Positions 3,197 to 12,223 of a stretch of 32,000 nt of DNA are shown one piece after another (positions within the stretch are counted from its first letter, which is position 1; every line of letters starts with the position of its first letter). The notes under the pieces are model-generated. The model was not told the origin of the DNA. It saw nothing but the letters and a program-made list of their open reading frames with translations, and searched no databases. Source of the stretch: Promethearchaeum syntrophicum (GTDB lineage: Archaea > Asgardarchaeota > Lokiarchaeia > Sigyniarchaeales > Promethearchaeaceae); contig NZ_CP042905.2 in the NCBI RefSeq assembly GCF_008000775.2, positions 390,001 to 422,000 on the forward strand, given 5' to 3'. Position numbers and translations under genes: made by a program.

Positions 3197-4723
3197 TTAT
3201 TTACTTTCTTCAATTTCTACAACATCAAGTTCCACACATAGCATAGGATTACCAAAAATTTTTGAAAGAGAAGGATTGGTTCTTCCATTATCTCCATGAA
3301 TCATTTCTTTAATATACATTCCCCCTTGACTATTAATTTTGAAAAAACCATGTCGTGAATCCACATATTTGCCTGTAATTGAATGAATCTTCTTTTTTCT
3401 AGTTTTATCAGAACGTCTATGAACAACTCTTAGAGGAGTTCGTTGATTAATGATCTTGTCATTTAATATCTCTTCAGCTTTTTGTAAATTTTCTTTAAAT
3501 TCATTTTTAGAGATAGGTTGTGCGAAATATACTAGAGCATTGTAATTTTTCCTTAAATATTCAGAGGATCTTTTAATTTCTATAATATCTTTTTTAGTGG
3601 CAGATATAAGTGAGTCCACAAATATTTTAGTTTTATTATTTTTATTTATATTTTGAGCAACTTCTGTTAACTCTACTTTTCTAATTTTTGGATTCCTAAT
3701 TTCAATTATAAATGAACGCCCAGATCCTATACAGCGAGCATCAATATCTTCTCTACCCGCTCCATGAAAAAGCGCTTCTTCACCTTTGGTTACCTTTACA
3801 AATTCGTTTCCAATTAAATCTTGAATTGAACTTGGATATCTATCACCAGTTCCTCCGCATTCGGTACAAATTTTCTTAGTAAATTTATTAAATCCTTTAC
3901 CATGGCATTCAAAACAATGCCAATGAGTTTGGGGTAAATCTCTTACCCATTTTTTATATCGACCTTTAAAATATAACGGAAGTGACCTAAGATTGAAATC
4001 CATTTTTCCTTTTAATTCTAAATTAATCGTTATCATTAGTCCTGGTTGCTCATATTTTGGTTGTTTTTTCCATAGGTCCTGTAATTCTTTACCAATCAAG
4101 CGATTTAAATTCGCTTTAAACGATTCGCCATTTTTCAAATTAAATTTTGCTCGTAATTCGTCTTCTTTATCAGCCTGGACTGCATTCAAATGAGTTCCTA
4201 TTAAAAAATCAGAAAAATCATATTCACGTGTCTTAAAATTAATTGAATTACAAATTTCGCTTATATTCTTTGGCATTAGAATATTTTCACATAATTGACA
4301 ATTAAATTCCGTCGTTCCTGAAGAATTTGATAATGTTGAGAATATAAATTCTTTATCTTTGAATTGGTCGATAATTTTCCTAGCTGGAATGAAATTAGTT
4401 CTTCTAGCTAATAAGTCCAAAATTTCAATTGGATTTTGGTTATAAAACATAAACCTTTCTTGAAAAGTTGTTTTTGATAGTAACAAATGGCATTCCATTG
4501 TAATTCCTAATAATATTGCATGAGCGCGCTCAAAATTTGAAGTAGCTGTCCCTAAATATGAAAATTGACGTCCAAGGCATTCATTACATAAACAATTATA
4601 TTTGAGAAGATCGATTGTTTTCTGATAGATACTTGGAGAAAGATTTGTATAATTGATTTGAATTTCTTCTTCTTTCAGATCCTCAGATTGGGATTCTTCA
4701 TGGCTGATAGGACGATTTTCCAC
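3197..4723 (-). CDS. pus10: tRNA pseudouridine(54/55) synthase Pus10
   Basis: It has the N-terminal zinc motif CLCNECLGRQFSYLG plus CQLCEN. The catalytic-core motif is GAGREDIDARCIGSGRSFIIEI. Further Pus10-type motifs are RTPLRVVHRRSDKTRKK and YIKEMIHGDNGRTNPSLS. The only available start is the GTG at 4723. Confidence 0.85.
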   Translation of the reverse strand: MENRPISHEESQSEDLKEEEIQINYTNLSPSIYQKTIDLLKYNCLCNECLGRQFSYLGTATSNFERAHAILLGITMECHLLLSKTTFQERFMFYNQNPIEILDLLARRTNFIPARKIIDQFKDKEFIFSTLSNSSGTTEFNCQLCENILMPKNISEICNSINFKTREYDFSDFLIGTHLNAVQADKEDELRAKFNLKNGESFKANLNRLIGKELQDLWKKQPKYEQPGLMITINLELKGKMDFNLRSLPLYFKGRYKKWVRDLPQTHWHCFECHGKGFNKFTKKICTECGGTGDRYPSSIQDLIGNEFVKVTKGEEALFHGAGREDIDARCIGSGRSFIIEIRNPKIRKVELTEVAQNINKNNKTKIFVDSLISATKKDIIEIKRSSEYLRKNYNALVYFAQPISKNEFKENLQKAEEILNDKIINQRTPLRVVHRRSDKTRKKKIHSITGKYVDSRHGFFKINSQGGMYIKEMIHGDNGRTNPSLSKIFGNPMLCVELDVVEIEESK

Positions 4724-4802: not shown

Positions 4803-5543
4803 ATGCTAACAAGCGAAGAATTGGAAAGGTATCAACGACAAATCCTAATTATAGGAAAAAATGGTCAAGAATTACTCAAACAAAAAAAAGTGCTCCAAGT
4901 GGGCTTAGGAGGCCTGGGATCTCCCCTCTCTTTATATCTTGTATCATCGGGAATTGGTGAATTAATTGTTTTTGAAAATGATGCTCTCTCATTATCCAAT
5001 TTAGGTCGACAAATTCTCTATAATACAGAGGATGTTAATATGTCCAAAGGAGGCCTCGCTAAATCTGTTCTTTCAAAATTGAATCCAAATATAAAAATTA
5101 CAATTATTAATGAACGTTTTACAATGCAAAGTGCTGAAAAATGTCTTAAAAACGCGAAAATTGACTATCTAGTTGACGCTTCTGATAATTTTGAGACTAA
5201 ATTTCTTATTAACGATATCGGTCTAAAATACAATATCCCCTTTACTATTGCTGGAATTCAAGGATTTGATGGACAACTAATTTCGGTAAATCCTCATGAA
5301 ACCGCTTGTTATCGATGTATTTTTGGTGATATGCCAAAGAATGATAAATTAAAACCAATCCCTGTTATGTCTCCAACTTGTGGTGTAGTGGGCTCTCTTG
5401 AAGCAAACGAAGTTATCAAAGGTCTTTTAAAAAGAGGAAAAAGGATAACTGATAACTTATTAATGATTAGTCTCGATTTAGGGGATTTTACACTTATTCC
5501 GATTAAGAAAAATCCCAACTGTGAATGTCAACTTAAGAACTGA
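4803..5543 (+). CDS. E1-like adenylyltransferase of the ThiF/MoeB/UbaA family
   Basis: It has the nucleotide loop VGLGGLGSPL, followed by LGRQILY and DASDNFETKFLINDI. A Cys pair CYRC and a C-terminal CEC are present. The PTCGVVGS loop is present. At 246 aa it is a compact prokaryotic E1. Confidence 0.85.
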   Translation: MLTSEELERYQRQILIIGKNGQELLKQKKVLQVGLGGLGSPLSLYLVSSGIGELIVFENDALSLSNLGRQILYNTEDVNMSKGGLAKSVLSKLNPNIKITIINERFTMQSAEKCLKNAKIDYLVDASDNFETKFLINDIGLKYNIPFTIAGIQGFDGQLISVNPHETACYRCIFGDMPKNDKLKPIPVMSPTCGVVGSLEANEVIKGLLKRGKRITDNLLMISLDLGDFTLIPIKKNPNCECQLKN

Positions 5544-5545
5544 TA

Positions 5546-5848
5546 CTAATCTTTGTCGCTGGAAAACGGTTCTTTTAATATTTTCTCATCCATTTTAATA
5601 TCTGTTTCATTATCTACATCATCAGGGTATAATTTTTTTAATTTGTCAAGATCAGCAAAATTTCCACCATTTTCATTTGACTCAATTTCAAGATAAAAGG
5701 CACCTTCATAATCGCAATCTCGACAGCGATAAATTTCAGTTACTGCCCACCCCATGTTTCTCGCTCTATATAATGATGGTTTTTCACATTTGGGGCATAT
5801 TTTAATAGAAAAAGTTTTTTTCTTTCTTAATTTCTTCCAAAACGGCAT
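5546..5848 (-). CDS. Small zinc-ribbon protein with an acidic C-terminal tail
   Basis: It has a CPKC...CRDC four-Cys ribbon after a basic N-terminus (KKLRKKK), and a tail rich in D/E/K. The start is an ATG. It is convergent with the E1-like gene, with 2 nt between the stops. Confidence 0.6.
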   Translation of the reverse strand: MPFWKKLRKKKTFSIKICPKCEKPSLYRARNMGWAVTEIYRCRDCDYEGAFYLEIESNENGGNFADLDKLKKLYPDDVDNETDIKMDEKILKEPFSSDKD

Positions 5849-5924
5849 ATTAAATTCATTAAACTTTCTTTACCAAAAAAATTTCCTACCAAAAAGATTT
5901 AAGTTTTTAAATAAAAAATTAAAT

Positions 5925-8612
5925 GTGACTGAAATTCAATCTCTTCTGAAACAATTAGATAGCGAAGAAACAAGGCTTCTTACAATTAAGAGGTTAGGAA
6001 TGGTTTATGATCCTAACTTAGTAGATCACCTCGTAAAATATCTTTTGGATAAAAATGGTAAGATCCGAGAAGCAACAATTTTTGCATTGAGCGCTTTGGG
6101 AGAAGTAGATACTATTATAGATCCAATAATTAATTGTTTAGGGGATGAAGTAAAAGAAGTACAAATTGCTGCAATAAAGACTCTTGGTGAATTTCGTTCA
6201 ATTAGGGGAACAAAACCATTAATTAAAATGTTAAATAACTCAGATAATGATGTTAGAGCTGCAACTGTAGTTGCACTTGGTTTGATTGAGGATAAAAATA
6301 GTCTATTTCCATTGATAGATGCTCTGGAAGATAAAGATGAAGAAGTAAAGATTAATGCTATAATGGCATTGGGTCAAATTGGTGATCAACGCGCAATAGA
6401 TCCAATTATTGAATGCTTAAAAGGAAGTTTTCCAGTACAACAAATGGCAATTCTAACTTTAGGAAAATTTGGTGATAAAAAGATCATTTCTCCTCTCAAA
6501 AAACTTTTATCTTCCCCAAATCCAAAAATCAGACAATATGCGATCATGTCTCTAGGATCTTTAAAAAATTCTAAGATTATAGAATATGCTATAAGGCTTC
6601 TAGATGATGAAGATCCCTCTGTACAACGCGCTGCAGCATCATCATTAATGGGATTACATGATCAACAAATTGTAACATCATTTATAGATCGCTTGAAGGA
6701 CTCTAATCCTGAAATCCGTCAAACTGCTTGTAAGGCATTGGGGAATCTGAAGGATGAGTCTGCAGTTATGGGTTTAATTGAAACTTTAAAAGATATTGAA
6801 CCAGAAGTTCGGGAACAGGCTGCTCACTCTTTAGGGATATTGGGAGATACTTCAGCAACAAAGCCTCTTATTAGCCAACTTAAAAAAGACAATGATCCCA
6901 AAGTACGTGCAACAATTGCATTGGCCCTAGGTAAAATAGAAGGACAAGCATCTCATGGGGGATTATCTAAAAAATTTAGTGTTTCCTCCGCAATAAGACC
7001 ATTATCAAAAGCTTTATCTGATCCAGATTTAAAAGTTCGAGCCAATTCAGCAGAATCATTAGCAAAGATTTCAATTTCAGGAGGCTCGTTCAAAAAAGCA
7101 CAATCTTATTATGAAAAAGCAGCAGCAGAGTCATTAACTTGGGATTATCATCAAAGTATTTATCAAGCATGTGCAATTGGTTGTGGATTAATTGAATCGA
7201 TTTCAAAAGGAATATACAAAGACTACGTTGCAGAATTTGATTTAATATATGAGAATTTAGAATTATCTGCAAAAATGATTGGAAATCAAACATTTCTATC
7301 TTATAATTATTGGAAATTACTGCAAGTATTTAATTCAATCTTTCTAAGCAAAACTAAGGAGCAATTCATCCAATATTATAGAGATTTTGGATTGCAATTA
7401 CTACTATTAGCTAAGAAATTACCAGAAGAGAGTAGAGAAATATTAAATGAATCTCAAGATAAATTAAATGAAAAATTTACTATGATTGATAAACGAGGGC
7501 TACCTCTAGAGCAATCCATTGCAGAAATGGAAAAATTGAAAGAAGAGGTAAATGAGATTGCAAATAAAATATTGCAACTGGAACCATTAGAATTACGCAT
7601 GGAGGAAAAAACGAAGAAATCGGTCAAAGCGATTGAAAGCTTAATTTCCACAGTTGATGATATAGTTAGTGATAGTGAACCTACATTGAATGATAGTCCT
7701 ATTACAATTAGAATTACATCAAAAAAAGAACGGAATTTTAATTTAGAAGAAGTCGATTTTGGAACCAGTATATCGCTAGATCATAATAAACCCACTCCCA
7801 TAGCTTTAATACAATTACAAAAAGGGATTAAAAGAGAAAGTTATGTTCAGGAACCAAGAGATTTATGGGAGAAATCCGTACAAAGATATTACGATTATAA
7901 TATTTATCGCCATTCAAGAATTCTCCAATTTACAAAAGAATCAATTCAGATGCGTGCTAAACCTAAAATTATTGGATATCTTGATGATATGATATATGAA
8001 AGTAAAAAATTAGTAATTTTTCCTGAAAATTCTGTTCCATATTCTTATTTGGATAAATTACAGCAGTTTGCAGATCGATTTAATTTCTTCATAATTGCAG
8101 GAATCGAAACTATGGCTGAAAAAGGTTCATATTTTAATCGTGCTTATCTTATTGGGCCATTATTAGAAAGATTTTCATTTCAACAAAAAAATTCTCAAAC
8201 GGTTCTACCTCCCTCAGAGAAAAGCATTAGTGAATGGAGGGAAAATATCGAACCAACTATTCCACCTGTTTTTAAAATATTCAATTCCCCTTTTGGGAAA
8301 TTTTTGATTCTGATAGGTCAAGATATTGTTGAAAATTTGCAGTATTTACCATTTATTTTCCGTGAAAAAAGTTTGGATTTTGCGATATTATTAAACAATG
8401 GATATTTACATGATTCAACTCTAAAAGACATCCAAAATCTGGCAAATGAGACAAAGAAACCAATATTTCTTGTAAATACTGGTCAATTTGGTGGAACCGG
8501 TATTTATTTACCCAACCAAACAATGGATTCATTATTGCAGAATGAATTCACTGAAGGTATTGCTTCATATGAATTAGAAATACCTGAAGAAGAAGATCTA
8601 GAGTTATTATAA
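5925..8612 (+). CDS. HEAT-repeat protein with a central helical/coiled-coil region and a C-terminal carbon-nitrogen-hydrolase-like domain lacking the catalytic Cys
   Basis: It has at least 11 tandem ~31-aa HEAT/PBS-lyase-type repeats (D..VR..A..ALG..GD). The C-terminal ~270 aa follow CN-hydrolase topology (IALIQ, LVIFPE, FFIIAG..YFNRAYLIGP..FQQKN, FLILIGQD, FAILLNN, IFLVNTGQFGGTGIYLP). The start is uncertain. The ATG at 5754 overlaps the divergent gene by 95 nt, so I prefer the GTG at 5925; the ATG at 6000 is the alternative. Confidence 0.8.
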   Translation: MTEIQSLLKQLDSEETRLLTIKRLGMVYDPNLVDHLVKYLLDKNGKIREATIFALSALGEVDTIIDPIINCLGDEVKEVQIAAIKTLGEFRSIRGTKPLIKMLNNSDNDVRAATVVALGLIEDKNSLFPLIDALEDKDEEVKINAIMALGQIGDQRAIDPIIECLKGSFPVQQMAILTLGKFGDKKIISPLKKLLSSPNPKIRQYAIMSLGSLKNSKIIEYAIRLLDDEDPSVQRAAASSLMGLHDQQIVTSFIDRLKDSNPEIRQTACKALGNLKDESAVMGLIETLKDIEPEVREQAAHSLGILGDTSATKPLISQLKKDNDPKVRATIALALGKIEGQASHGGLSKKFSVSSAIRPLSKALSDPDLKVRANSAESLAKISISGGSFKKAQSYYEKAAAESLTWDYHQSIYQACAIGCGLIESISKGIYKDYVAEFDLIYENLELSAKMIGNQTFLSYNYWKLLQVFNSIFLSKTKEQFIQYYRDFGLQLLLLAKKLPEESREILNESQDKLNEKFTMIDKRGLPLEQSIAEMEKLKEEVNEIANKILQLEPLELRMEEKTKKSVKAIESLISTVDDIVSDSEPTLNDSPITIRITSKKERNFNLEEVDFGTSISLDHNKPTPIALIQLQKGIKRESYVQEPRDLWEKSVQRYYDYNIYRHSRILQFTKESIQMRAKPKIIGYLDDMIYESKKLVIFPENSVPYSYLDKLQQFADRFNFFIIAGIETMAEKGSYFNRAYLIGPLLERFSFQQKNSQTVLPPSEKSISEWRENIEPTIPPVFKIFNSPFGKFLILIGQDIVENLQYLPFIFREKSLDFAILLNNGYLHDSTLKDIQNLANETKKPIFLVNTGQFGGTGIYLPNQTMDSLLQNEFTEGIASYELEIPEEEDLELL
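6048..7085 (+). repeat. Intragenic array of at least 11 HEAT/PBS-lyase-like repeats (about 93 nt each, diverged at DNA level)
   Basis: The protein-level periodicity is visible in units such as NSDNDVRAATVVALGLIED, DKDEEVKINAIMALGQIGD, DSNPEIRQTACKALGNLKD, DIEPEVREQAAHSLGILGD and DNDPKVRATIALALGKIEG. Confidence 0.8.
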
Positions 8613-8668: not shown

Positions 8669-10666
8669 ATGATGAACGAAGAGCTATCTTTTAAACTTAA
8701 AAATTTACCAGATAATCCCGGAGTTTATCTATTTAGAGATATTGAAAATGTTATATTGTATATAGGGAAAGCAAAATCTCTAAAAAAAAGGGTTGTTTCA
8801 TACTGGAAAGAGCGAAATCCGAAAGATGATCCTATTTATAATAAAAAAATTGTAAAATTAGTCAGTTTAATCCATGATATCGACCTTTTTGTAGTAGAAA
8901 ATGAAGCCGAAGCTTTAATCTTAGAAAATGAATTGATAAAAAAGCATCAGCCTCGATTCAATGCTTTAGCCAAGGATGATAAATCATACCCATGGGTAAA
9001 GATCACTAAAGAAAAATTCCCTAGAGTCTCCATAATTCGATCTCCAGAGCGTCATGGATTACAAAATAAATTTATCGGACCTTTTGTTGATGCTGGAGAT
9101 CTTAGACATTTATTAAGATATATTCGGAAAATTTTTCCATATTGTACATGTAAAACCAAATCTTCACGTAATAGTCGGATTCGTCCATGTGTATATTATC
9201 AAATTAATTTATGTCCAGCACCATGTTGTGAGAAAATTGATGAGAAAAAATATATGGAAAATATTGAAAATATCGAGCAACTTCTTGTTGGAAACATTGA
9301 TGAAATGCAAGAAAATTTTAAAGCTAAAATGATACAAGCATCTAATGAATTAAATTTTGAAGAAGCTGCTATTTACCGCAACCATCTTAAAGAACTTGAA
9401 ATTTTTACCGTAGAACAATCAATTATTTCTTATGATCTTGAAAAAACTGCGAAGAAAGGACAGGTTACTGAAGAGGTTACTAAACCAGTGTGGAAAGACC
9501 TTGACATAGTTGCAGGTTTTTTTTCCAAGGTTAGAGCAGGAATAATAATTCTTCATGTAAGACACGGGAGGTTAATCGGTAAAACCCCTTATGTGATAGA
9601 TCTTGGGGAAAAAATAATAACAAAGTCAAATTATTTTATATCTTTATTTAAACAGCATTATCTTCGCCCAGAAATTCCCGTACCTAATGAAATTGTTTCA
9701 AAATATGAATTTCCCCAAGATATTATTGAAGGATTATCCACTTATTTTTCTAAAAATAATTTAAATTCAAAAAAAATTGTATTTCGTGTACCATCAGAAG
9801 ATGATAAAACTGCGGGACTTCAAAGGATAGCAAGGAAAAATATCGAATTATTAGTTCACCAAAAAGATTCGTTTGATGTACATAAAGGAATCACCCAAGG
9901 ACTCAAAAATCTTAAAGAAATACTAAATCTAGATGAAATTCCTTTAATCATTGAGGCGTTCGATATGTCTCATACTCAAGGAACTGATTATGTAGGATCC
10001 ATGGTCTGTTTCGTAGAAGGAAAACCCAGTAAAAGTCATTATCGGAGATATAAAGTAAGAAATACTCAAAAACCTGATGATATTGCAGCAATGAAAGAGG
10101 TAATGACCAGAAGATATACGCGCGCAATAAAAGATGATAATTTGCCTGATTTAATTGTGGTTGATGGTGGGAAGGGGCAATTAAATATGGCTCATACACT
10201 TCTAAATGATCTTGGGATTGATAACATTCCTCATATTGGTTTAAGTAAACCAGAAGGAAGAAGTGAAATAAATCAACCCCCTAAAATTATTTTACCCGAA
10301 CAGCAAGATTATATTGAGCTTCCGCTAAAATCTGAATCACTTCATATTTTACAAGCACTTAGAGATGAGTCTCATAGATTTGCAATTAATTATCATCGAT
10401 TATTAAGGAAAAAACGACAGAAAAAATCGGAACTTGATGATATTTCTGGAATTGGACCTGCTCGAAAACGGAAATTGTTAACTTTTTTTGGTTCTGTTAA
10501 GGAAATAAAAAAGGCTACAGAAGAACAAATTGCTGAAGTTGTTGGTTCATCAAATGCACAAAATATTTTCAACCATTTTGAACATAAAAGAAGCAAAGAA
10601 AAACGGTTTAAAAAGAAAACCAGTCGTAAGAAGGCAGTTTCCTCATTTTCAAAGCAACAAAAATAA
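8669..10666 (+). CDS. uvrC: Excinuclease ABC subunit C (UvrC)
   Basis: It has a GIY-YIG domain (GVYLFRD..ILYIGKAKSLKKRV..ENELIKKHQPRFN) and a Cys cluster (CTCK..PCVYYQINLCPAPCC). A UVR motif (NFEEAAIYRNHLKEL) and a C-terminal endonuclease region (EAFDMSHTQG, VVDGGKGQLN) are present. An (HhH)2 module follows (ISGIGPARKRKLLTFFGSVKEIKKAT), then a Lys-rich tail. Confidence 0.92.
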   Translation: MMNEELSFKLKNLPDNPGVYLFRDIENVILYIGKAKSLKKRVVSYWKERNPKDDPIYNKKIVKLVSLIHDIDLFVVENEAEALILENELIKKHQPRFNALAKDDKSYPWVKITKEKFPRVSIIRSPERHGLQNKFIGPFVDAGDLRHLLRYIRKIFPYCTCKTKSSRNSRIRPCVYYQINLCPAPCCEKIDEKKYMENIENIEQLLVGNIDEMQENFKAKMIQASNELNFEEAAIYRNHLKELEIFTVEQSIISYDLEKTAKKGQVTEEVTKPVWKDLDIVAGFFSKVRAGIIILHVRHGRLIGKTPYVIDLGEKIITKSNYFISLFKQHYLRPEIPVPNEIVSKYEFPQDIIEGLSTYFSKNNLNSKKIVFRVPSEDDKTAGLQRIARKNIELLVHQKDSFDVHKGITQGLKNLKEILNLDEIPLIIEAFDMSHTQGTDYVGSMVCFVEGKPSKSHYRRYKVRNTQKPDDIAAMKEVMTRRYTRAIKDDNLPDLIVVDGGKGQLNMAHTLLNDLGIDNIPHIGLSKPEGRSEINQPPKIILPEQQDYIELPLKSESLHILQALRDESHRFAINYHRLLRKKRQKKSELDDISGIGPARKRKLLTFFGSVKEIKKATEEQIAEVVGSSNAQNIFNHFEHKRSKEKRFKKKTSRKKAVSSFSKQQK

Positions 10667-10672
10667 TGATTA

Positions 10673-12223
10673 TTAATTTTCATGCTCGATTCTAAGTGCA
10701 TTTATCTGCTTTGTTGTGAATTTCTTTGATTCTCCTTGTTTAACATAATTTAAAAAAAAGATTGCAACAATTTCCCATAGAATAATATAAGGAAAGAGTG
10801 TTACGTACTGAAAACCTTCGTCACAATCGGTAATTATTTTATATAAACTGAAAACACTTCCAGCAATTAACGGACTAAAAGTTGCACTTAGCTGACTAAA
10901 TAAATAATATACTCCTGTATAGGCACCAATTTTACCTTTGGGTGCCATTTGCCATATAATAACAATTGAATTTATGATTACAAATCCAAAAAAAATCCCC
11001 ATAAAACCCATCAAAATTCTTATTAGAATTAGATTTTTCAAATAAATCATAAAAAATGAGCAAATGCTAAGTCCAATTAATCCCAAAAATATAGTTTTTT
11101 TGCGCCCAAACTTTTCGGCAATTTTACCTGCTGGAATTGCAGTAATTATCATAACTATGGGAGCAATAATTATAACTGAACTTGCTTCCCCTTCTTCTAA
11201 ACCTAAAAAACTCGTTGCATATAGGCTGTAATATGTCTCTAACGCGTTTTGGCTTAAAAACGATGTAAAAATTACAATTAACATAAATAAGGTGCTTTTT
11301 TCACTTTCTTTGAAAATAATCTTTAAAATTTCATAGGGTTTTTCTTTTTTTTCGATATTTTTCTCTTGTTCCCCTAAATAATCCAGAGTAATTGGATTAA
11401 TTGCTATGCTATATTCTCCAATTTTTAAAAATTTCTCTCCAGTCGGAGTTTCTTTTACCGTTAATAAGAATATTCCTAAGGCAATTGCAGTAGCGATACT
11501 TACAAGATAAAATCCCAAAGCTCGAGATAAATCTTTTTGATATAGTAATTGAGTACTATAAAATTTACCTGTAATAATAGGGATTACTAATCCTATTACC
11601 ATTGAAATTGCTCCTAGAGTATTTATAATTGCATTACCTGTAGATCTTACCTCAGGATCTGTCAAATCTGGTAAAACTGAAATACTGGCACTACGATAAA
11701 ATGACATTGAAAAATTGAACCAAATTATTACTGAAATTAATCCTATAAAAGGTCCAATTCCTCGTGAATCAGAGATTATTCCTAATATAGAAAAAGAAAT
11801 TACTGCGCTTATACATCCAATTATTATAAATGGTGTTCTTTTTCCTAATTTTGATTTTGCTCGATCAGAAATCGCCCCGAAATATGGAATCATAAGTACA
11901 GCAATTATATTATCAAGAACCATTATAATTCCGACATATAAATCCAGAAAATTTCCCGCATCTATATCTATAAAGAATTCTTTCAATAGTATAGGCATTA
12001 TAAAGTTATAATAAGCCCACACAATTGAAGAAGTCATAAAAGCAAGACCAATAAGAAAAGTTCTTCCATAATTTAATTTTCCTGGAGTATTAGGTGACAT
12101 TCGAGGCTTATACGAAGAATTTAAATTATCGTCATTTCCTATTGATGAGGGCATTTTTAAAATAAAATCTAATAATATTATTAAAATTTGTCCCGACATA
12201 TCGGAAAATATTAGTTTTAACAT
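10673..12223 (-). CDS. MFS transporter, glycoside-pentoside-hexuronide / sucrose-symporter-like
   Basis: It has about 12 hydrophobic segments and the loop 2-3 motif ISDRAKSKLGKRTPFIIIG. It is a paralogue of the divergent neighbour. The start is uncertain: ATG 12223, 12154 or 12100. The last gives MSPNTPGKLNYGRTF, which aligns best with the paralogue's N-terminus. Confidence 0.8.
   Translation of the reverse strand: MLKLIFSDMSGQILIILLDFILKMPSSIGNDDNLNSSYKPRMSPNTPGKLNYGRTFLIGLAFMTSSIVWAYYNFIMPILLKEFFIDIDAGNFLDLYVGIIMVLDNIIAVLMIPYFGAISDRAKSKLGKRTPFIIIGCISAVISFSILGIISDSRGIGPFIGLISVIIWFNFSMSFYRSASISVLPDLTDPEVRSTGNAIINTLGAISMVIGLVIPIITGKFYSTQLLYQKDLSRALGFYLVSIATAIALGIFLLTVKETPTGEKFLKIGEYSIAINPITLDYLGEQEKNIEKKEKPYEILKIIFKESEKSTLFMLIVIFTSFLSQNALETYYSLYATSFLGLEEGEASSVIIIAPIVMIITAIPAGKIAEKFGRKKTIFLGLIGLSICSFFMIYLKNLILIRILMGFMGIFFGFVIINSIVIIWQMAPKGKIGAYTGVYYLFSQLSATFSPLIAGSVFSLYKIITDCDEGFQYVTLFPYIILWEIVAIFFLNYVKQGESKKFTTKQINALRIEHEN

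Follow-up and report, generated by a model that had tools for sequence, protein, structure and literature searches.

The window analyzed here is a stretch of 32,000 nucleotides (nt) from the Asgard archaeon Promethearchaeum syntrophicum (contig NZ_CP042905.2, positions 390,001 to 422,000 of the forward strand), and the gene in question occupies positions 5925 to 8612 of its plus strand. All positions given below without a locus name are those of the window. Pfam searches and AlphaFold modeling revealed a four-part protein that consists of HEAT repeats, an orphan helical domain, a disordered linker, and a C-terminal nitrilase-superfamily domain. The full-length AlphaFold model was built on 21 homologues and had a mean predicted local distance difference test score (pLDDT) of 78.6. 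The gene and its parts, including the codons of the active-site positions, are as follows.

5925..8612, plus strand: whole gene, 895 codons plus a stop codon, GTG start
5925..7079, plus strand: HEAT/PBS-lyase-type repeat array of 12 helix pairs, residues 1-385 (Pfam, AlphaFold, Foldseek)
7086..7592, plus strand: orphan all-helical middle domain, residues 388-556 (169 amino acids), eight helices with a pLDDT of about 70-90 (AlphaFold)
7593..7739, plus strand: poorly conserved, mostly disordered linker of ~50 amino acids, residues 557-605, pLDDT 27-52 (AlphaFold)
7740..8579, plus strand: domain of nitrilase-superfamily (CN-hydrolase) fold without the nucleophile, residues 606-885 (Foldseek, profile against the PDB, PADLOC)
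7824..7955, plus strand: clade-specific insert of ~45 residues (634-677) between strand 1 and helix 1, pLDDT below 50
8025..8027, plus strand: Glu701 codon GAA, first catalytic Glu, in the motif IFPE, invariant in the alignments
8187..8189, plus strand: Lys755 codon AAA, catalytic Lys, in the motif QQK (alignments)
8241..8243, plus strand: Glu773 codon GAA, aligned with the second Glu of the superfamily, invariant in the HEAT-fused and sister clades
8316..8318, plus strand: Gly798 codon GGT, at the position of the nucleophilic Cys (alignments)
8322..8324, plus strand: Asp800 codon GAT, acidic residue two past the nucleophile (C-x-D/E motif), invariant

The C-terminal domain has a nitrilase-superfamily fold

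A first-pass annotation, made from the letters of the window alone, had called the last domain CN-hydrolase-like and had named a fold comparison as the point at which the call might fail. On its own, the sequence scored 12.7 bits with the Pfam CN_hydrolase model (PF00795), below the gathering cut-off of 23.2 bits, and the relatives that keep the catalytic Cys reached about 20 to 28 bits on the same model. The domain alone gave only chance matches to sorting nexin 11 in a phmmer search of the PDB and only a weak match to Lnt in NCBIfam. A profile of 11 homologues searched against the PDB returned the glutaminase domain of NAD synthetase (5kha, E = 6e-4), pantetheinase, Nit2, and the nitrilase domain of DRT1. 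An AlphaFold model of the domain (residues 614-895, pLDDT of 71.8, predicted template modeling [pTM] score of 0.74) was compared with the PDB by Foldseek, which produced 116 matches at E ≤ 1e-3. The best 50 of these 116 were all nitrilase-superfamily enzymes, comprising amidases, Nit2, Lnt, vanin-1, carbamoylases, and formamidases; the top match was the PH0642 amidase (E = 9e-13), followed by Cj1056c, Nit2, Lnt, and vanin-1, with template modeling (TM) scores of 0.54 to 0.60.

The best family-level matches came from PADLOC, with its models RTasNitrilase (E = 3.3e-11), RT_UG5-nitrilase (E = 1.5e-7), and Drt1a (E = 1.9e-5). By these scores the domain is nearer to the defense-type nitrilase models than to the generic CN_hydrolase model of Pfam (E = 0.078). 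The profile search, Foldseek, and PADLOC thus agree with the CN-hydrolase call, and the predicted fold of the domain is the four-layer alpha-beta-beta-alpha sandwich of the nitrilase superfamily. Its start, which had been placed at about position 7791, was moved to near position 7740. The insert at residues 634-677 is almost invariant, with the motifs RYYDY and RILQFTxESIQMR, and is partly common to a sister clade fused to LRR arrays; it may form a lid or an interface that becomes ordered only in a complex.

The catalytic cysteine is replaced by glycine

The catalytic residues were assigned by alignment with enzymes of the superfamily and with relatives of the domain. Glu701 and Lys755 align with their superfamily counterparts, and the Lys is present in 20 of the 21 full-length orthologues and in 30 of 31 HEAT-fused sequences. 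In the profile alignment, Glu773 falls on the Glu of the DE motif in NAD synthetase 5kha, suggesting that it represents the second catalytic Glu of the Glu-Lys-Glu-Cys tetrad. The printed profile alignments place the family motif "iligqD" beneath "VLICED" of NAD synthetase and "FTCFD" of pantetheinase, and Gly798 therefore occupies the position of the catalytic Cys. Two distant relatives carry Cys in the Gly798 column, within "VIICKDF" (L010) and "VLVCADF" (L009), with the Glu of the FPE motif and the Lys aligned. The L009 gene (5869-7455), from Rhizomicrobium, encodes 528 residues in which an N-terminal, Cys-keeping nitrilase domain is joined to an HAD-IB phosphoserine-phosphatase-like domain.

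A profile search of 1.84 billion representatives yielded 1,404 relatives at E ≤ 1e-3, and the nucleophile position was counted in an alignment of the best 150 of these together with the orthologues, giving 31 HEAT-fused sequences and 143 others. Cys was found at this position in none of the 31 HEAT-fused homologues versus 139 of the 143 other relatives. Gly occupied it in 29 of the 31, and 28 had the complete combination E-K-G-D, the remaining three being E-E-G-D, E-K-S-E, and E-K-K-D. The divergent orthologue P0029 has Ser at the site. The orthologue of L. ossiferum (L003) was part of the aligned set and likewise lacks the Cys. An alternative Cys nucleophile was also sought: residues 626-895 contain no Cys at all, and no Cys is conserved elsewhere in the domain among the orthologues. 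These results bear out the first-pass annotation, which had placed the Glu (LVIFPE) and the Lys (FQQKN), had noted Gly for Cys at codon 8316-8318 and the lack of Cys in the last ~270 residues, and had proposed a survey of homologues; the survey confirmed the register, found the Cys loss to be conserved, and uncovered no retained nucleophile.

The Cys-less domain forms one clade and is maintained

A maximum-likelihood tree of 82 domain sequences was constructed. The HEAT-fused proteins formed one clade, with a Shimodaira-Hasegawa-like approximate likelihood ratio test (SH-aLRT) support of 97. Their sister is a Cys-keeping "ICKDF" clade in which the sampled proteins carry either an LRR array or an AAA_21/AAA_15 ATPase as fusion partner. 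The two clades were separated (SH-aLRT of 95) from a "VLIC[AS]DY" clade, which includes nSTAND3-PUA proteins matching the PADLOC model for CARF-nitrilase. The acidic residue at the Asp800 position was Asp at a frequency of 0.97 to 1.00 across all three clades. Since all outgroups keep the Cys, a single event is the parsimonious explanation, and the change would represent a loss that happened once, on the stem of the HEAT-fused clade.

Between genera, no part of the protein is better conserved than the nitrilase domain, with 56 to 60% identity versus 50 to 55% for the HEAT array. Within the genus Promethearchaeum, the ratio of nonsynonymous to synonymous substitution rates (dN/dS) was 0.09 for the nitrilase domain and 0.10 for the HEAT array. 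The active sister clade has 85 conserved columns; in the HEAT-fused clade, 28 of them are conserved with the identical residue, among them those of the catalytic Glu, the Lys, the putative second Glu, and the Asp, and a further 19 are conserved with a different residue. These values fit a Cys-less domain that is maintained under strong purifying selection and is not decaying.

The P. syntrophicum genome has one copy of the domain, and related loci were obtained from Promethearchaeum, Lokiarchaeum ossiferum, and Harpocratesius. Among 301 sampled genomes of the phylum, full-score orthologues (E of about 1e-131 to 1e-139) were confined to the gene's own family, where they occurred in five of the seven other genomes. 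One sister genus, represented by two genomes with a completeness of 91% and 76%, yielded neither the nitrilase domain nor the middle domain. Many other Asgard genomes have multiple Cys-keeping paralogues of 850 to 1,290 residues. At one such locus (L043:1289-17097), four genes lie head to tail, each encoding about 1,280 residues with a C-terminal Cys-keeping nitrilase domain and, elsewhere in the protein, only a faint TPR signal.

The HEAT array, the middle domain, and the linker

The HEAT array scored 257.8 bits with Pfam HEAT_2 (E = 5.5e-78, cut-off 27.7), 152.3 bits with HEAT, and 105.7 bits with HEAT_PBS, and its helix pairs were modeled with a pLDDT mostly between 85 and 94. The 12 modeled pairs agree with the at least 11 HEAT/PBS-lyase repeats counted in the first pass. 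With the full-length model, Foldseek returned only HEAT solenoids (alphaRep, karyopherin, PP2A-A), and this search yielded no structural relative of the architecture as a whole. The array also scored 44 bits with Pfam Adaptin_N, above the gathering threshold of 37 bits; the aligned part consists of generic HEAT repeats, the adaptin structure 4p6z ranked only 24th in Foldseek, and prokaryotic PBS-type repeats matched far more strongly. Such an Adaptin_N score for a PBS-type HEAT protein could inflate counts of the "adaptin N HEAT repeat" eukaryotic signature protein in Asgard genomes.

The middle domain gave no significant relatives when a 10-sequence profile was searched against the PDB (best E = 0.09) or when its members were searched with Pfam, and it was seen only among HEAT-fused homologues. 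Within Promethearchaeum it is the most constrained part of the protein (dN/dS of 0.03 to 0.04). The linker that follows has an identity between genera of 16 to 35% and, within Promethearchaeum, a dN/dS of 0.12 to 0.28. The stretch between the repeats and the last domain had been described as about 300 amino acids of helical, partly coiled-coil sequence; the helical character was upheld for the 169 residues of the middle domain (388-556), and the length was not, about 50 amino acids being disordered linker. In the full-length model, the compact eight-helix fold covers residues 389-552, and residues 556-602 are disordered.

Comparison with known systems

The closest comparison by family-level sequence match is with the reverse transcriptase-associated nitrilases of the DRT1/UG5 type (PDB 9yfd). 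The report on DRT1 describes the nitrilase as an effector domain activated by DNA synthesis, in which the catalytic Cys, C1116, is kept; the nitrilase domains alone form the core of a tetramer, and the substrate is given there as still unknown (PMC13275509). The Promethearchaeum domain has the same predicted fold, the Glu, the Lys, and the context of the C-x-D-type motif in common with these proteins; the 11-homologue profile matched the DRT1 chain, and PADLOC RTasNitrilase was its best family-level match. Unlike DRT1, for which the same report describes C1116 and a required nitrilase effector, the Promethearchaeum domain has Gly. In further contrast to DRT1/UG5, no reverse transcriptase is fused or adjacent to it, and the neighborhood is a stable, housekeeping one. 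The variable defense-island context, the fusion or adjacency to a sensor, NTPase, or reverse transcriptase, and the intact catalytic center of defense nitrilases are all absent.

The nearest relatives in the tree are the LRR-nitrilase fusions of Promethearchaeota (for example, L010 5086-7152, L017, L018, and P0033), which belong to the sister clade. They share the N-terminal extension of the domain, the insert, and the overall layout, in which the nitrilase domain comes after a repeat array. They differ in keeping the Cys (IICKDF), in having LRR instead of HEAT repeats, in lacking the orphan middle domain, and in often carrying a DUF2240/HTH tail. The L010 gene (5086-7152) encodes 688 residues made up of an LRR array, a Cys-keeping nitrilase domain of the sister clade, and a C-terminal tail; just downstream of it, on the minus strand, is a DDE-transposase-like open reading frame (ORF) at 7158-7712.

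Canonical amidases, namely PH0642 of Pyrococcus horikoshii (1j31/6ypa), Nit2 (2w1v), and Cj1056c (9wpn), were matched by Foldseek with E values of 9e-13 to 5e-11. The sandwich and the positions of the Glu, the Lys, and a putative second Glu are common to both, whereas the amidases are only 12 to 17% identical, stand alone, have the Cys nucleophile, and lack the insert of ~45 residues that follows strand 1. Residues 1-385 resemble the PBS-lyase-type HEAT proteins CpcE/CpcF and NblB and the alphaRep designs that derive from such repeats: they matched the models for CpcE and NblB and, at 33 to 38% identity, alphaRep structures. All of these are short solenoids without a nitrilase domain. Because the match to CpcE/NblB is far below the curated cut-offs (114 versus 330 bits), it reflects a shared repeat type and not orthology.

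The UniRef entry of the L. ossiferum orthologue is labeled a "CN hydrolase domain" protein, so the domain is recognized by automated annotation. A literature search on HEAT and nitrilase in Asgard archaea found nothing on a HEAT-nitrilase protein, on conserved Cys loss, or on kinship with defense nitrilases, and no paper was found that pairs "nitrilase superfamily" with "pseudoenzyme."

A putative non-catalytic module on a HEAT scaffold

We considered how a nitrilase-fold domain without its nucleophile might have arisen and what it might do. Its ancestors would belong to a clade of active nitrilases that serve as effector domains in prokaryotic conflict systems, where they are fused to, or associated with, reverse transcriptases, CARF (as named in the PADLOC model), STAND NTPases, OLD/ABC-type ATPases, and LRR arrays. 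The nucleophilic Cys would have changed to Gly in the stem lineage of the HEAT-fused clade, and the pocket (Glu701, Lys755, Glu773, and Asp800) and the fold would have been kept under strong selection. To our knowledge, catalysis by every characterized member of the superfamily proceeds by way of a thioacyl intermediate formed on this Cys. Since no such intermediate can form without the thiol, the domain most likely hydrolyzes nothing.

The protein would then be a cytoplasmic scaffold in which a flexible linker connects the nitrilase-fold domain to a solenoid of 12 HEAT repeats and the orphan helical domain. Protein partners would be held by the solenoid. The nitrilase-fold domain may bind, without turnover, an amide-type ligand of the kind cleaved by its ancestors, and it may drive homo-oligomerization, either alone or beside ligand binding. 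Nitrilase folds generally homo-oligomerize. The tetramer core described for the DRT1 nitrilase domains (PMC13275509) provides a precedent for such a role.

The first-pass annotation had read the domain as a pseudo-enzyme, and the predicted fold, the lack of Cys in all HEAT-fused sequences, the low dN/dS of the domain, and the retention of the other catalytic residues support that reading. We infer that catalysis has been lost and that the domain binds or oligomerizes, and we consider that it is probably a non-catalytic binding and/or oligomerizing module on a protein-binding HEAT scaffold. Several points weigh against this interpretation. The retained Glu, Lys, Glu, and Asp would be equally expected if some chemistry survived, and the strict Gly, in place of Ala or Ser, is unexplained by simple inactivation. 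In addition, the gene was not found in the two sister-genus genomes, and its role is therefore dispensable there or the assemblies are incomplete.

As interpreted here, the protein is a case of a nitrilase-superfamily member that has been cleanly inactivated and yet is strongly maintained, and a natural relative that is free of the nucleophile but otherwise preserves the pocket is a candidate tool for finding the ligand of defense nitrilases. It is also a defined target for interaction studies, since it is a conserved, single-copy protein of 895 residues with a very strongly constrained orphan domain, and both Promethearchaeum and Lokiarchaeum are in culture. A speculative and rather unlikely proposal is that the Cys-less domain acts as a natural "substrate trap" that still recognizes the molecule attacked by the defense-type nitrilases (DRT1/UG5, CARF-nitrilase, and STAND- and LRR-fused forms) and that it was domesticated in Lokiarchaeia as a cytoplasmic sensor on the HEAT scaffold. 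If this were true, the protein could serve as bait for the substrate of immune nitrilases, which has long been sought, and the closest cultured relatives of eukaryotes would have made a housekeeping receptor out of an immune effector.

Retained catalysis by an altered chemistry, which would make the protein a hydrolase or a transferase targeted by its HEAT array, is unlikely. The Gly could open space in which Glu701 and Glu773 activate water directly, or a thiol could be supplied in trans by a thioester substrate or a partner protein. Such chemistry would account for the invariance of three of the four tetrad residues and of Asp800, for the fixation of Gly specifically and not of any small residue in 29 of the 31 sequences, and for a dN/dS as low as that of a working enzyme, and the Ser of P0029 is a possible nucleophile. 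However, we know of no characterized member of the superfamily that works without the Cys, and crystallographic work obtains inactive forms by changing the Cys to Ala or Ser (as the titles of 6ypa, 5ny7, and 5h8k show). The domain has no conserved Cys elsewhere, and in one orthologue the catalytic Lys is replaced by Glu.

It is quite unlikely that the protein is a working or regulatory part of an immune (conflict) system in which the HEAT array senses an invader and the dead nitrilase serves as a decoy, an inhibitor, or an assembly partner of active effectors. The nearest families are indeed defense-type nitrilases, relatives are fused to LRR, AAA_21/AAA_15 (OLD/Gabija-like), or nSTAND3, and Cys-keeping paralogues are many and sometimes tandem in Asgard genomes. 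However, there is no other copy of the domain in the P. syntrophicum genome, and therefore no active nitrilase of the clade to be regulated. Defense genes are usually variable, whereas this gene is single copy, is vertically inherited, and sits in a stable housekeeping neighborhood (Pus10, ThiF, UvrC, and MFS). The dN/dS was low in all structured parts, and the repeat array showed no sign of diversifying selection.

Gene neighborhood

The genes that flank the HEAT-nitrilase gene were identified with Pfam as follows.

3197-4723, minus strand: Pus10
4803-5543, plus strand: ThiF-type E1
8669-10666, plus strand: UvrC
10673-12223, minus strand: MFS transporter

The order Pus10-ThiF-HEAT-nitrilase gene-UvrC-MFS is kept wholly or partly in eight orthologous loci. 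Divergent orthologues from metagenomes have unrelated neighbors, His_Phos_1 and PIG-L in one case and an ECF transporter component and NadA in another. In the sister genus (L046:2291-7894), uvrC is preceded by the gene for alanyl-tRNA synthetase (AlaRS), and a search of this 91%-complete genome found no HEAT-nitrilase gene. Because it is absent from the divergent orthologues and from the sister genus, we take the synteny to reflect inherited gene order and do not count it toward a shared function, and ThiF and UvrC, being shared as neighbors only among close relatives, appear to say little about what the protein does.

A joint role with these neighbors is very unlikely; the protein would then assist DNA repair and be co-expressed with UvrC, or it would be a factor in the upstream ThiF/JAMM ubiquitin-like sulfur-relay set. 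In favor of such a role, the orthologous loci of sufficient length have ThiF on the upstream side and UvrC as the next gene downstream, all in the same orientation; the gap to UvrC is 56 nt in P. syntrophicum, and the two ORFs overlap by 4 nt in L001. Against it, the divergent orthologues and the sister genus differ as described, and a T-run and an AT-rich box before UvrC appear compatible with a separate transcription unit.

Start codon and promoter region

The longest ORF at the site runs from 5754 to 8612 on the plus strand. The GTG at 5925 is the coding start: a database protein from the same genome has the identical 895 amino acids, and the start site is equivalent in all orthologues. In the orthologue L001, an in-frame stop codon lies 10 codons 5' of the same GTG, which rules out a longer form starting at the ATG at 5754; the 57-codon upstream extension (5754-5924) is therefore non-coding.

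The window as a whole is AT-rich (GC content of ~30%). The following element lies before the start codon.

5898..5912, plus strand: AT-rich box, TATA-like (TTTAAGTTTTTAAAT), lying 12-27 nt ahead of the start codon and conserved among three Promethearchaeum genomes (sequence comparison)

From its sequence, this box is a possible promoter. The gap of 382 nt between the ThiF gene and the HEAT-nitrilase gene also holds an ORF of 100 codons on the minus strand (5546-5848), which overlaps the non-coding upstream extension and is probably spurious, the spacer being AT-rich.

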